From a virus (Duplodnaviria; Caudoviricetes), in IMG/VR virus record IMGVR_UViG_3300044724_003024, positions 1 through 24,705 of that record: a stretch of DNA of 24,705 bases; one strand, 5' to 3'. Within the stretch, counting starts at the first letter, position 1; the number at the start of each line of letters is the position of its first letter. This document shows, piece by piece, positions 1,007 through 16,632 of the stretch. The translations under genes and the position numbers were made by a program. The notes under the pieces are model-generated. The model saw only the letters and a program-made list of their open reading frames with translations, was not told the DNA's origin and did no database searches.

Positions 1007-1387
1007 TCATTCTTTTGGTATACTGACAAGGGCAGAACCGATGTGGTCTGTGATCGCCTTGTACGCATCCGTCCACGAGTAGCAGACCATACAATCGTAG
1101 CCTACCTGCTCGAGCCTTTCAAGCCATGCCTTCTGGTGCTTGCTCGGTCTGTTGGGCTTCACCTTCATCTCAATGAACAGCCCCGCCGAGTACGAGTTGG
1201 GGACCGCTACGAAGATGTCGGGGATGCCTGCCTTCACGCCTTCGGCTTTCAGTTTGGCTGCCACCTTGATATGGCGATGACCGCCGTTTGGTATGGCGAA
1301 GATGTTGGCAAATAGCGGGTTGGTCCGCTCTTGTAATTTTAGCGCTTTGAACAGCGCCACCTGCTCCCGGTGTTCTTGGTCTTTCAT
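1007..1387 (-). CDS. VRR-NUC domain (PD-(D/E)XK) nuclease
   Basis: Contains FAIPNGG, LKAEGVKAGIPDIFV, LFIEMK, and Q..WLERL...GY, typical of phage VRR-NUC proteins. Confidence 0.85.
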   Translation of the reverse strand: MKDQEHREQVALFKALKLQERTNPLFANIFAIPNGGHRHIKVAAKLKAEGVKAGIPDIFVAVPNSYSAGLFIEMKVKPNRPSKHQKAWLERLEQVGYDCMVCYSWTDAYKAITDHIGSALVSIPKE

Positions 1388-1929
1388 TATCGAAGCACCA
1401 CGTATTCCTTGCCTTCGCCCAGCGCCGCAAAGTCACATTCCAGACCCGCAGCGAGCGCCTTGCCGATGGCGGTCTTGTCTGGGCGGCGCGTGATCTTGGT
1501 AAACTCATCCGGCACGAGCGACTCGTCCTCGACAATGACAGGGGCCTTCGCCTTGCGCACCGATACACTGACATGGTTGGGTGTCTCTGCCTTCTGTATT
1601 CCGAGCATTCTCATCGACAGCATGATCCGATTTTTCAGACCATCGACCACCCGGCGCTTGCTGTTGGCGCGAGCCTTCATGGTATCCATGCGCTCTTTTA
1701 GGTATGCCGCTTTCGCTTCGTAGGCTTCGGTATCCAATTCCATCTGTGCGATGACCACGGCGTAGCGGTCCATCTTGACAAGGATGTCATCCTCGCCTTG
1801 TGCAAGCTGGTCGAGCAGCACCTCGGCATCCTCTGTTATCTCGCCGCCCGTTGCTTCGAGCAGTTCCTCCAAGTTGACAAGGTCTGCCAGTTGGTTGTGT
1901 GTCAGGTCAAATAGGTTCTGGTTGTCCAT
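1387..1929 (-). CDS. Siphovirus Gp157 family (Mu Gam-like) coiled-coil protein
   Basis: Acidic N-terminus, a central coiled coil, and C-terminal VIVEDESLVPDEF...PDKTAIGKALAAG. Confidence 0.8.
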   Translation of the reverse strand: MDNQNLFDLTHNQLADLVNLEELLEATGGEITEDAEVLLDQLAQGEDDILVKMDRYAVVIAQMELDTEAYEAKAAYLKERMDTMKARANSKRRVVDGLKNRIMLSMRMLGIQKAETPNHVSVSVRKAKAPVIVEDESLVPDEFTKITRRPDKTAIGKALAAGLECDFAALGEGKEYVVLR

Positions 1930-4519: not shown

Positions 4520-4543
4520 TTGTGCTGCCTTACGGGGCGGCGG
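4520..4543 (-). repeat. Hairpin direct repeat, copy 2
   Basis: Minus strand CC-GCCGCC-CCGTAA-GGCAGC-ACAA; 21/24 identical to 5271-5294. Confidence 0.7.
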
Positions 4544-4551
4544 GTGATGGT

Positions 4552-5256
4552 TTAGGCGAAGCGCAGATTTACTTTGTCACTTGTATAGTGATTGTAGATC
4601 TTTTCGATCAAATCCCTGTACTGGTCAACCGAAGTGCAGTCGTACATCTTGGCACGTTGCCGCTCAAGTTTCGAACGGAATCTGTCGTAATCGAATTGAG
4701 GAAGATCCAGTAATGATAACATCGCGAAAACGAATGTGCGGCGGCGAATGCCGGGATATAGATCCTCAAGCGCCAATATCTTCTCGGCGCGATCGATTGC
4801 CTTTTTGCGGTCCTTTACTACAAACTGACCGTTCTTGAAATCCTCAAAGGAGGCTCCGTTATAACTGCCGTTTAAAAGACGCAAGCACTCTTGATGACCA
4901 AAACCGTACTTCTTCTTGAAAGCGCGATAAAACTCATAATGCAAGTTGCCCATCTCGCAGTAACCGTCCAGATAATCGTTCGTAGTCCATCGCTTCAGGT
5001 TTGCATTTAGTTGATGAACATCGGTCAAACCGTAGTTCTCGCATATAACGTAGTGTACCGGAAGTCCCAACTCCTTTGCACATTCTAAGCGGTGCTGACC
5101 ATCGATGACTTCAAGATTTTCGTTTACGGTAATGACCGTGAATCGATAATTCTCGCGCATTGACTCCATCAGCCTTGCCTTGTGCGACTGACTGATAGAT
5201 CGGTTGCCAGTAAGTTGCTTGAATTGTGCGTAGTTTTTTGTCGTGCGAATCTTCAT
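4552..5256 (-). CDS. ParB/Srx-like N-terminal domain protein
   Basis: GNR.I...H...L.ESM...ITVNENLEVIDGQHRLEC...LGLPV.Y matches the ParB/Srx core. Confidence 0.75.
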   Translation of the reverse strand: MKIRTTKNYAQFKQLTGNRSISQSHKARLMESMRENYRFTVITVNENLEVIDGQHRLECAKELGLPVHYVICENYGLTDVHQLNANLKRWTTNDYLDGYCEMGNLHYEFYRAFKKKYGFGHQECLRLLNGSYNGASFEDFKNGQFVVKDRKKAIDRAEKILALEDLYPGIRRRTFVFAMLSLLDLPQFDYDRFRSKLERQRAKMYDCTSVDQYRDLIEKIYNHYTSDKVNLRFA

Positions 5257-5270
5257 TTTCTCTCTCTTGA

Positions 5271-5294
5271 TTGTGCCGCGTTACGGCGCGGCGG
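5271..5294 (-). repeat. Hairpin direct repeat, copy 1
   Basis: Minus strand CC-GCCGCG-CCGTAA-CGCGGC-ACAA, a perfect 6-bp stem. Confidence 0.7.
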
Positions 5295-5300
5295 CTTGAG

Positions 5301-5361
5301 GTGTCTGCCTCATCAGCACCGGGAGACAATCCCCGGTGGACGCCCCGAAGGGCGTTTCGGC
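5301..5361 (-). ncRNA. Type II hammerhead ribozyme with loop I/3'-tail pseudoknot
   Basis: Minus strand GCC-GAAA-CGCCC-UUCG-GGGCG-UC^-CACCGGG-GAUUGUCU-CCCGGUG-CUGAUGA-GGC-AGACAC. It has the intact core (CUGAUGA, GAAA, GUC), three perfect stems and a UGUCU/AGACA pseudoknot. Confidence 0.92.
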
Positions 5362-5559
5362 TTATTTGCGCTTTTTCTCTACTTTGATCCACCACTCGTT
5401 CCCGTCCTTGTCGGTGATTACACATGGGACATCTGAGAAGTACTCAATCTTTTCCATGTTGTCGCACAGTACCTCTGTTTCATCGTACCTACTCATGTCA
5501 TCGAAGAGATTGAGGAAGGCTGTCTGAATCGATTGGGTGATTGCTTTGCGAAGGGTCAT
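5362..5559 (-). CDS. Small hypothetical protein, first gene of the early operon
   Basis: 65 aa ORF preceded by CCGAGAGAGACA-ATG; its stop codon directly abuts the ribozyme. Confidence 0.65.
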   Translation of the reverse strand: MTLRKAITQSIQTAFLNLFDDMSRYDETEVLCDNMEKIEYFSDVPCVITDKDGNEWWIKVEKKRK

Positions 5560-5591: not shown

Positions 5592-5648
5592 GTTTGACTT
5601 GTGACCAATATCGAAATCCTTTTTTACTTATCCTATCACTTCACAGAC
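5592..5648 (-). promoter_or_regulatory. Early promoter/operator-like element, copy 1
   Basis: Sits at the head of the leftward operon; 41/57 identical to 3674-3730. Confidence 0.6.
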
Positions 5649-14404: not shown

Positions 14405-16528
14405 ATGGAAGAGCTCGACGAGGTATATCGCAAGTGGAACAGGCTCGCCAATATGAGCGCGTCTGATCTTCGAGCGTGGTCCGAAACCGAGTGCAGCCGC
14501 TTGGCATCGGTAGACCCGGCGGCAGTCATCGCTCGCAATCTTGAACTGCTCGAAACCAAGAAAGACGATTGGACGGAGAAGCACATCAACAACGCCAACC
14601 GCGCCATCTCCTTCATTGAGCGTATGCGTAACGGCGAGCAGGGCGAACCCGCGAAGGAGGGCTGCCCGAGCAAACGAGATATATCATTAAAGAACTGGGC
14701 GCATGATCCGCGTAAGCCGCTCAACAAATCGACAGACACAATGAACGACAACGAAATGCTCATCGCCTACGGGGGCGAGGTTAAAGCTCTGGGTGACGGT
14801 CGAATCGGCGGCTATCTGGTGAGGTTTAGCGGACCGACTGACCCCGACCTATACGGTGATTTCTTTACCAAGTCCACCGACTTCGGCATCCAAGCAACCC
14901 TCCCCGTCTTTTACCAACACGGATACGACGATACCCTGAAGAACAGGCAGATCGGCGTGGGCGAAATCAGCAGCACCGATGCAGGTCTCTGGTTCGAGGC
15001 GCAGCTGGAGAAGCGCGACGAGTACGAGAAGATGGTTAACGAGCTGGTCGAGATGGGCAAACTCGGCTACTCGTCCGGCGCGGTCGGACACCTCGTCAGC
15101 CGCAAAGACTCGGACAACGGGTCAAAAGAAATTGAGACATGGATACTCGGCGAGGCATCGCTCGTGCTAAACCCTGCCGAGCCACGCAACCACGTAATGT
15201 CTATCAAGGAATTTGTCGAGGCATCAGCCCCGGCAGCACAGGAAATTGCATCTGATGTAGTGGAGCCAGAGGCAGACACGGCAGAGGCGGGGCATGATCA
15301 CCCTGCGCCAACTGCGGCAGAAGCCAAATCGGAAGCAATCGATGAAGCGCCCGACATGGGCGAAACTCCACACACAGAACAAGAGGACGATACAATGCCT
15401 GAACAGAACAATGACGTTCTGAAAAGCATCGAGTCAATGCTCGAAGCACAGAACGCTCGCCTTGACGCTATGGAAGAAGCCAAAGCCGCTCCTGCCATCG
15501 TCGAAGTACCTGCCGAAGCCAAGTCCGCTCCGGCTATTATCACAAGCACCGGAGACTCCGAAGCCAAAGCATACGCCGCATGGGTACGCGATGGTGATGC
15601 AGGCGCTCTCCGTGGCGCTAAAGGCTACGAAGTAGATGGTCGTGAAGTTGAGATCAAAGCATCCAACGACACGGACATGAACATCGGAAGCGTTGCTGAT
15701 GGTCAAGCGGTCGTACCAACGGGACACTTTGAAGGCATCTTCGCCAAGAAGTCCGAAGCCGACCTCACGGACCTGCTCGGTCTGACCCGCATCCCCGGTG
15801 TCGGAACGACTGTCAACGTACCCTTCGACAACGAAGCCGATGGTGAGTTCGTCAGCACAGCAGAAGCCAACGCCTACGACCGTGACGCTCCGGCTCTCGG
15901 ACAGCAGGCTTTCACGCTCGTCAAGTACACGAAGAAAGTACAGTTGAGCGAAGAACTTCTCGAAGACGAAACGAGCAACCTGCTCGCCTTCATTGAGAAC
16001 TTCGTTGCTCGCGGCATGGCGAAAACCAACAACAGCCTGATCGTTGCCGAGGCTGCTGCCTCTGGCACGGAAGCAATCGCATCGACCGCCGCAGGCATCG
16101 CCGCCGGTGAGATCGAGGACATCGCTTTCAACGATACGGTCCAGTTCTACCTCGACAGCCCGAACATCGCATGGCTGACTCGTGGCTCCACCTACGGCAA
16201 CATCGCTGCTCTGACGGGCAACGAGCGCCTGTATGCAGAGCAGGGCATCCGTTCGACCTTCGGTCAGTACGCCAACCGTCCGAGCCTGCTCGGATACCCC
16301 GTCATGTTCTCGGCTAAAGTCGACGCTGACGGTACGGGTGACAACAAGCCGATCTTCTTCGGTGACTGGTCGCAGATGGGCTACTACATGGCACCGACCA
16401 TGAAAGTCCTCCGTGATCCCTACGGAGACGCTGCAACCGGACAGGTCAACCTGTTCTACTCATACCGTGTAGACTACGAGATCCTTCAGCCGGAGGCTAT
16501 CGTATACGCTCGCGTATCTAACACCTAA
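14405..16528 (+). CDS. DUF3140-like domain + HK97 prohead protease + major capsid protein in one ORF
   Basis: aa 1-105 NMSASDLRAW...SLKNWAHDP; protease motifs YQHG, GYSSG, EASLVLNPA; capsid motifs VQLSEELLED, LLGYPV, IFFGDW, VLRDPY. Confidence 0.9.
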   Translation: MEELDEVYRKWNRLANMSASDLRAWSETECSRLASVDPAAVIARNLELLETKKDDWTEKHINNANRAISFIERMRNGEQGEPAKEGCPSKRDISLKNWAHDPRKPLNKSTDTMNDNEMLIAYGGEVKALGDGRIGGYLVRFSGPTDPDLYGDFFTKSTDFGIQATLPVFYQHGYDDTLKNRQIGVGEISSTDAGLWFEAQLEKRDEYEKMVNELVEMGKLGYSSGAVGHLVSRKDSDNGSKEIETWILGEASLVLNPAEPRNHVMSIKEFVEASAPAAQEIASDVVEPEADTAEAGHDHPAPTAAEAKSEAIDEAPDMGETPHTEQEDDTMPEQNNDVLKSIESMLEAQNARLDAMEEAKAAPAIVEVPAEAKSAPAIITSTGDSEAKAYAAWVRDGDAGALRGAKGYEVDGREVEIKASNDTDMNIGSVADGQAVVPTGHFEGIFAKKSEADLTDLLGLTRIPGVGTTVNVPFDNEADGEFVSTAEANAYDRDAPALGQQAFTLVKYTKKVQLSEELLEDETSNLLAFIENFVARGMAKTNNSLIVAEAAASGTEAIASTAAGIAAGEIEDIAFNDTVQFYLDSPNIAWLTRGSTYGNIAALTGNERLYAEQGIRSTFGQYANRPSLLGYPVMFSAKVDADGTGDNKPIFFGDWSQMGYYMAPTMKVLRDPYGDAATGQVNLFYSYRVDYEILQPEAIVYARVSNT

Positions 16529-16538
16529 TAGGTGGGTG

Positions 16539-16609
16539 AGCCGGGTGGTGTAAAGGCGCACACCTTTTCCTCTCTCGGGGTGGAGCGGGTTCGATTCCCG
16601 CCCCGGCTC
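16539..16609 (+). ncRNA. tRNA-like element (pseudo-tRNA) with a non-canonical anticodon arm
   Basis: Acceptor stem AGCCGGG/CCCGGCT, D arm GTGT-AAAGGC-GCAC and perfect T arm GCGGG-TTCGATT-CCCGC. The anticodon arm has a 10-nt pyrimidine loop, and no CCA is encoded. Confidence 0.7.
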
Positions 16610-16632
16610 CTACATTTCAACAAACATCTGCC

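Follow-up and report, generated by a model that had tools for sequence, protein, structure and literature searches.

Pseudoknotted type II hammerhead ribozymes that flank non-constant genes in prophages were reported by Perreault et al. in 2011 (PMC3088659), who found that arrays of these hammerheads cut in vitro and in E. coli and proposed that they process transcripts into gene-length mRNAs. In Desulfovibrio RNA, three type II hammerheads located close to phage-like genes have been found cleaved (PMC8782182), and the purpose of phage hammerheads has been termed undefined (PMC6765202). Hammerhead_II arrays are also present in two cultured Streptomyces phages, Alvy (NC_054669.1; L455) with 6 in 4 kb and VieEnRose (ON526983.1; L456) with 10 in 9 kb, although 3 of these 16 matches are below the cut-off for the Rfam family RF02276.

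Two other systems share features with the locus described here. RiboJ, an engineered element placed after a promoter, consists of an sTRSV-derived ribozyme and a 23-nt hairpin; its cleavage standardises the 5′ end, and it insulates and raises expression (PMC6206723). In T4-type phages, the PeSL cassettes (Arbiol et al. 2010, PMC2839356) are repeated stem-loops that hold a sigma-70 promoter and a terminator and lie between small non-essential early genes, and recombination at these repeats shuffles the modules.

The window, namely the whole stretch of 24 705 nt that was analysed, contains one type II hammerhead. The ribozyme itself is no different from those in the arrays of Perreault et al., with the same core, open stem II and loop I-tail pseudoknot, and it has the same intergenic, co-oriented placement in a phage, with variable flanking genes (here 13 upstream and 11 downstream families). 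The ribozymes of Alvy and VieEnRose belong to the same Rfam family and are found between small genes at one genome end. However, these phages have many copies per genome and belong to a different host group. The order of ribozyme, hairpin and ribosome-binding region is that of RiboJ, which the linker in the window resembles through its trailing hairpin, but the window element is natural, is of type II, follows a stop codon and is only a putative insulator. As in the PeSL cassettes, repeated stem-loops are located between small early genes and modules are shuffled at the repeats (the L472 deletion and the G001/G002 indel described below). However, the linker contains a ribozyme, a hairpin with a CCGUAA loop, or both, and no promoter. 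The glmS ribozyme, in contrast, has a ligand-binding fold and a fixed metabolic gene, whereas the window has a plain hammerhead and the genes downstream vary.

Perreault et al. (PMC3088659) already present this architecture, its context and the hypothesis of processing. What is added to the main text of that paper here is the abutment of the stop codon, the mosaic ribozyme halves and the competing hairpin. Stop codons, the ribosome and recombination are not mentioned in the main text, and the supplements may bear on stop-codon spacing. Literature searches, with most subscription journals outside their reach, found no paper on hammerhead ribozymes and translation termination in phages, and only general reviews for hammerheads with a stop codon or Shine-Dalgarno sequence in prophages.

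Identity and fold of the ribozyme

The original prediction described an intact, pseudoknotted type II hammerhead of the known bacterial and phage kind on the minus strand, and the ribozyme is real and ordinary for its type, matching the architecture in Perreault et al. 2011 (PMC3088659). The sequence at 5361-5302 (-) is as predicted, and the covariance model RF02276 (Hammerhead_II) finds it at 5362-5299 (-) with 61.7 bits (cut-off 37, E 9.1e-11), the match spanning positions 1-66 of the 66 in the model. This is the single RF02276 copy in the record, and none of the 14 control genomes contained a match.

When every pair was listed and checked, the canonical core, the perfectly paired stems, the UUCG loop and the abutting TAA all proved correct. 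Stem III (CGCCC-UUCG-GGGCG, 5354-5341) has 5 Watson-Crick pairs plus A15.1-U16.1, where U16.1 is 5340. In stem I, CACCGGG at 5338-5332 forms 7 Watson-Crick pairs with CCCGGUG at 5323-5317 and encloses an 8-nt loop. The cleavage triplet is GUC (5341-5339), which is of the NUH type, with C17 at 5339. Stems I and III each carry a closing loop and stem II is open, giving 7, 5(+1) and 3 pairs, respectively, with compensatory changes in relatives. The TAA at 5364-5362, which ends a 65-codon frame, directly precedes the ribozyme. Other features are listed in Table 1.

The predicted pairing of loop I with the tail held for four of its five pairs. The loop base of the fifth pair, U5328-A5302, is C in L140 and A in L430 while the tail is the same, and because this pair is lost in both we consider the conserved loop-tail helix to be 4 pairs long. 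On its sequence and fold, the ribozyme in the window is probably active, a prediction in which we have high confidence. In one family member, L150 (360-430, minus strand), the ribozyme contains one inserted base, differs at the base of stem I and is possibly weakened.

Table 1. Features of the ribozyme, the repeated linker and the adjacent genes in the window
Feature	Position	Strand	Evidence or remarks
Promoter-like repeat before 65-aa gene (putative)	5592..5626	-	Conserved at same place in L139, L145, L150, L468, L474
65-aa orphan gene, TAA abuts ribozyme	5362..5559	-	3 other protein clusters, 59-80 % identity
Type II hammerhead ribozyme, long (pseudoknot) form	5302..5361	-	RF02276 and listed pairs; predicted cut 5339/5338
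Stem II	GCC 5361-5359 with GGC 5309-5307	-	3 pairs, open stem
Stem III and UUCG loop	5340..5355	-	Sequence; pair probability 0.99-1.0
Stem-loop I	5317..5338	-	Sequence, pairs listed, compensatory changes in L430 and G002
Catalytic core CUGAUGA	5310..5316	-	Partner GAAA 5358-5355; invariant in family alignment except position 7
Pseudoknot tail AGACA	5302..5306	-	Pairs with loop I 5328-5324; 4 conserved pairs and 1 variable
CCUCA tract, can pair with 5312-5308	5297..5301	-	Pair listing; inactive alternative fold, or product after refolding
CCGUAA-loop hairpin of 6 bp, a repeated part of the linker	5275..5292	-	Direct repeat D9
A/C-rich leader with GAGAGAG box before ParB-like start	5257..5274	-	Direct repeats D1, D12; also before other early genes
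ParB-like gene, 234 aa, swappable cassette	4552..5256	-	phrog_12305, E 1.5e-27; replaced or absent in relatives
Second CCGUAA hairpin closing ParB cassette, without ribozyme	4524..4541	-	Direct repeat

Genome setting

The record, a whole virus record, is that of a tailed phage and is estimated to be 82 % complete. Lysis, packaging, head and tail genes are on the plus strand, and the minus strand carries small genes, the ParB-like gene, a Gp157/Gam-like gene and a VRR-NUC nuclease. From the gene content, the gene orientation and the promoter-like repeat, we take the minus-strand genes to be the early region and the 65-aa gene to be probably the first early gene. The 65-aa protein matched no Pfam or PHROG family and the searches yielded no function for it. 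No match to a sigma-70 consensus was found on the coding strand of the promoter-like repeat (approximately 5626-5592, with a second copy at approximately 3710-3674). In G001 and G002, a sigma-70-like sequence is found where the window has this repeat.

At least half of the region is present in seven sequencing runs, all of which carry the label estuary metagenome, and six of these may be its source. No prophage relative was found in the GTDB genomes, and the matches to the terminase and amidase gave no host signal. Part of the prohead protease matches only Salinibacter phages (36 % identity over 23 % of the query) and the best matches for the ParB-like protein are in Flavobacterium phages (35 %); these two matches point, weakly, to the Bacteroidota-Rhodothermota side for the host. 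A Clostridia MAG was rejected as a host lead, as it was a single match to the hairpin pattern and probably due to chance.

On the plus strand, a 707-aa head protein (14405-16528) combines a DUF3140-like N-terminus, a prohead protease and a capsid domain in one frame. Directly 3′ of the capsid gene, at 16538-16610 (+), there is a tRNA-like element that ARAGORN calls tRNA-Glu. Its acceptor and T arms are normal, the D arm is odd and the anticodon arm is weak, and it is 97-98 % conserved in G005 and G006. In the middle of this element, 9 bases are complementary to the GAGAGAG leader box of the early genes, an observation made post hoc that may be due to chance.

Predicted cleavage of the early transcript

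The explanation that we favour, with modest confidence, is that the early polycistron would be cut constitutively into hairpin-capped pieces, insulating the shuffled genes. The putative minus-strand early transcript would cleave itself between 5339 and 5338. The upstream mRNA piece would acquire stem III as a new 3′-terminal hairpin, and the downstream piece would start with a 5′-hydroxyl and have stem-loop I as its 5′-terminal hairpin. Only the 3 pairs of stem II would hold the two cleavage products together, and each shuffled gene would likely be insulated from its neighbour by the cut. Judged from the sequence, the cut would most likely separate the upstream cistron from the RNA downstream of it. 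The early region of phage T7 offers a parallel, in that RNase III cuts between early genes to give hairpin-ended pieces of the polycistron. However, the RNase III sites of T7 need a host protein and leave a 5′-phosphate, whereas a hammerhead cuts itself and leaves a 5′-hydroxyl.

Cleavage could instead be a trigger for decay that lowers or times downstream expression, as for glmS, but we consider this unlikely. RNase J1 degrades the 5′-hydroxyl downstream product of glmS (PMC11780869), and the ribozymes of the family occupy the first few gene junctions that follow the promoter-like repeat, where a step-down in expression could help. However, the downstream product would begin with a 7-bp hairpin, here followed by a second hairpin, and the ribozyme has no ligand-binding extension. 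The arrays in Alvy and VieEnRose are also a better fit to punctuation than to silencing.

That the RNA would be cut in the cell, with an effect on stability or translation, is what we infer. Among the 24 public runs listed, 4 were of RNA, each with a small share (0.05-0.12) in the form of contigs. Three RNA-library runs, in which DNA is possibly present, provided 7 contig pieces from relatives on 5230-5420. Four of these 7 bridge the cut site by at least 31 letters per side and none stops there, though contigs cannot show ends, and RNA-library contigs also cover stretches that are likely silent.

Unmasking of a ribosome-binding site by cleavage was rejected on the predicted folds, which show no gain in accessibility. 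The predicted accessibility of the start region in the window is 0.79 before and 0.81 after cleavage. Among the matches listed in the survey described below, it averages 0.573 before and 0.565 after (n=232, p=0.47), and in 22 cases bearing CCU it falls from 0.52 to 0.48.

The repeated linker

Read from the sequences, the linker is a repeated unit made up of a stop codon, the ribozyme, the CCGUAA hairpin and the leader, and it is here that the early genes appear to be shuffled. Neither a minus-strand promoter consensus nor a terminator consensus was found in it. The CCGUAA hairpin is located approximately 10 nt after stop codons and is present in 1-4 copies in relatives. In 10 distinct copies, both sides of all 6 pairs vary and pairing is retained in 96.7 % of cells, though these copies include one ribozyme stem III and one terminator, and related sequences inflate the pairing test. 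CCGTAA sites are flanked by stems in 41 of 88 cases in 12 family stretches, some of which overlap, compared with 3.2 % for all hexamers.

The hairpin matched nothing in Rfam. Some family ribozymes have the CCGUAA loop instead of UUCG in stem III, and in L140 and L142 this loop closes a terminator. It may therefore simply be a stable loop; it is possible that it is read by a protein. A terminator function for the two copies in the window was rejected, as there is no U-tract on either strand. In the family, a U-tract follows the hairpin only at the operon end of L140 and L142.

Flanking genes and relatives of the window

The family includes 26 ribozyme copies, with 14 distinct sequences, in 20 loci, some of which are redundant. 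The flanking genes form 22 pairings. According to the original prediction, the cut would split the first cistron from a ParB/recombination mRNA. This link is incidental. An identical block of ribozyme, hairpin and leader precedes an unrelated 82-aa gene in L142, L145, L147, L150 and L417, and though a ribozyme precedes the ParB-like gene in the window and in L419 and L439, there is none ahead of it in G001 and G002. A second promoter-like repeat, at approximately 3710-3674 (-), is located upstream of the recombination genes. The swapped downstream genes and the ribozyme-free ParB-like genes of G001 and G002 rule out a fixed ribozyme-ParB unit.

Two copies of the ribozyme are present in G002, G007, L417, L430 and L451, and those in G002 enclose a two-gene block of AAA ATPase and DUF7192 genes. 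Most relatives were first found via the ribozyme or the hairpin, and the search was therefore repeated by protein alone. Eight non-redundant close relatives that include the promoter-proximal region (the window type, L139, L140, L142, L147, L478, G001 and G002) have a ribozyme. L468, L472 and L474 are close relatives in which the early region is intact, and neither the descriptor nor Rfam found a ribozyme in these three. This count of 8 versus 3 leaves out L471, a truncated contig, and L475-L477, in which the ribozyme descriptor found no match. As L468, L472 and L474 manage without the ribozyme, it is dispensable and an essential role is ruled out. In L468 and L474, there is only the hairpin at the first junction.

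The linker could be mainly repeated DNA for the recombination of cassettes, similar to PeSL, with the ribozyme riding along and its cleavage nearly neutral. L472 lacks the equivalent of window positions 5555-4510, is joined through the repeated leader and is 82-95 % identical elsewhere, and G002 contains a gene-plus-ribozyme unit between direct repeats that is missing in G001. In addition, each stem III type is found in the family with each stem I type, giving all four combinations, which suggests crossovers inside the ribozyme. Like the ribozyme-free relatives, these rearrangements are as expected for a recombination repeat, but the core is invariant and there are two tertiary-contact patterns with covariation, neither of which is needed for DNA homology alone. 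We regard this explanation as rather improbable. The linker DNA appears also to provide a point of crossover when genes are shuffled, perhaps as a by-product, and the ribozyme would be an optional device at junctions in a gene-shuffling early region.

The family amounts to a natural experiment, in which the same slot contains zero, one or two ribozymes in near-identical phages, and this slot also offers two interchangeable tertiary designs and a hairpin-only alternative. These results support an optional punctuation device in a region of gene shuffling and argue against gene-specific control of ParB.

G001, G002 and the window have early-region genes and the ribozyme linker in common and share almost no head or tail DNA, i.e. 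one early module is found on different virion modules. In L417, an 80-nt match to the tRNA-like ends of tmRNA (1375-1454, minus strand; 42.2 bits, below the cut-off of 47) is antisense to the early genes and has a sequence unlike the family. It is possibly a tRNA mimic, or the contig may be chimeric.

Survey of type II hammerheads in phages

Three pattern scans of viral contigs were examined, with 122 of approximately 130, 139 of approximately 500 and 126 of approximately 580 matches listed. These gave at least 344 distinct candidates that had both stems and enough flank, and dereplication by flanks reduced the number to 276. The scan patterns fixed the core and stem II, and the conservation of these parts can therefore not be assessed in this set.

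Among the matches listed, 88 of 122 long forms have a loop I-tail pairing of at least 4, over 45 different tails, compared with a mean of 23.8 and a maximum of 39 of 500 in the shuffled control. For the short forms listed, such pairing is found in 16/154 (shuffled, 9.8). Instead, 148/154 of these listed short forms have a U at 1.7, which is seven bases past the cut; 148/154 have a fourth pair in stem II and 146/154 an A two bases upstream. A U-A trans-Hoogsteen contact is mentioned in PMC9217987, and the U1.7/A pattern of the short forms would fit this contact, if our mapping onto an open stem II is right. Long and short designs alternate in the same slot within the family of the window. As either a covarying pseudoknot or the U1.7/A pattern has been kept, fast cleavage looks to have been selected.

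In 222 of the 276 (among the matches listed), a stop codon ending an open frame is no more than 5 nt from the ribozyme, compared with 322 of 3924 random positions. It is at 0 nt or overlaps the ribozyme in 105/276 of the matches listed and at 166/3924 random positions, and it abuts the ribozyme in 19 of the 26 family copies. The distance from the cut to the next start has a median of 55 nt among the matches listed (232 of the 276 had a recognised start) and is 82 nt in the window. The proteins encoded downstream are diverse, with 94 in 85 clusters among the matches listed in the first scan. In L441, there are five type II hammerheads in 1.8 kb, and the stop codon overlaps the ribozyme by one base in four of them; the stop position of the fifth was scored like that of the other four.

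The competing hairpin and translation

The original prediction had the catalytic fold right but overlooked a competing hairpin, in which 5 pairs between 5312-5308 and 5297-5301 sequester G8, A9 and two bases of stem II. The predicted energies are -30.3 kcal/mol for the competing hairpin and -27.4 kcal/mol for the catalytic fold, a gap of 2.9 kcal/mol in favour of the hairpin when the pseudoknot and core contacts of the catalytic fold are not counted. The CCU tract is kept in 11 of 13 long-form family copies and is absent from L430 and L425. Among the matches listed, 17 of 101 long GCC-type forms can form the hairpin, an enrichment of approximately 2.5-fold (shuffled mean 6.6, maximum 14 of 200; other windows 3-7), though some of the 17 derive from one contig. 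Two GAC-type ribozymes, L221 and L273, have a compensatory change in it. The hairpin would form last in transcription and may serve the product, or, with the GCC strand hidden by a terminating ribosome, could act as a trap for the precursor.

The second possibility would make the ribozyme a translation-gated switch. A terminating ribosome would cover the GCC-GAAA strand, the CCUC tract would capture G8-A9-G10 and cleavage would be delayed, a scheme that we consider improbable. Equally improbable is its corollary, that rapid cutting would need poor translation of the upstream gene. The abutting stop codons, the hairpin predicted in the window and enriched in the survey, and the compensatory change in L221 and L273 are in its favour. 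However, the tract is absent in 84 of the 101 long GCC-type ribozymes among the matches listed, as it is in L430 and L425, and several of the positives come from one contig. Stop abutment can also be explained by compact genomes and the need of the ribozyme for an A, which is supplied by TAA, and the hairpin may just form after cleavage and block re-ligation. The more general proposal, that phage type II hammerheads are translation-coupled timers with the upstream stop codon built into the 5′ strand of the ribozyme, is likewise improbable. If it were true, cutting of the early message would depend on how heavily the upstream gene is translated, and hundreds of orphan phage ribozymes would have a general regulatory role.

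Excision of gene-sized RNAs by pairs of ribozymes, followed by religation or circularisation, is very improbable. Single genes are flanked by two ribozymes in L139, L417 and L430, but the window has only one ribozyme, a 3-bp stem II should release the products fast, and spliced or circular products were sought and not found by Perreault et al. (PMC3088659).

The cultured Streptomyces phages with arrays make the role of phage hammerheads testable. In the stretches of Alvy and VieEnRose that were examined, the annotation does not include the ribozymes as RNA features. In Alvy, ribozyme matches overlap two annotated genes, namely the 24-codon gene 84 and, at its start, gene 89; these calls may be wrong.
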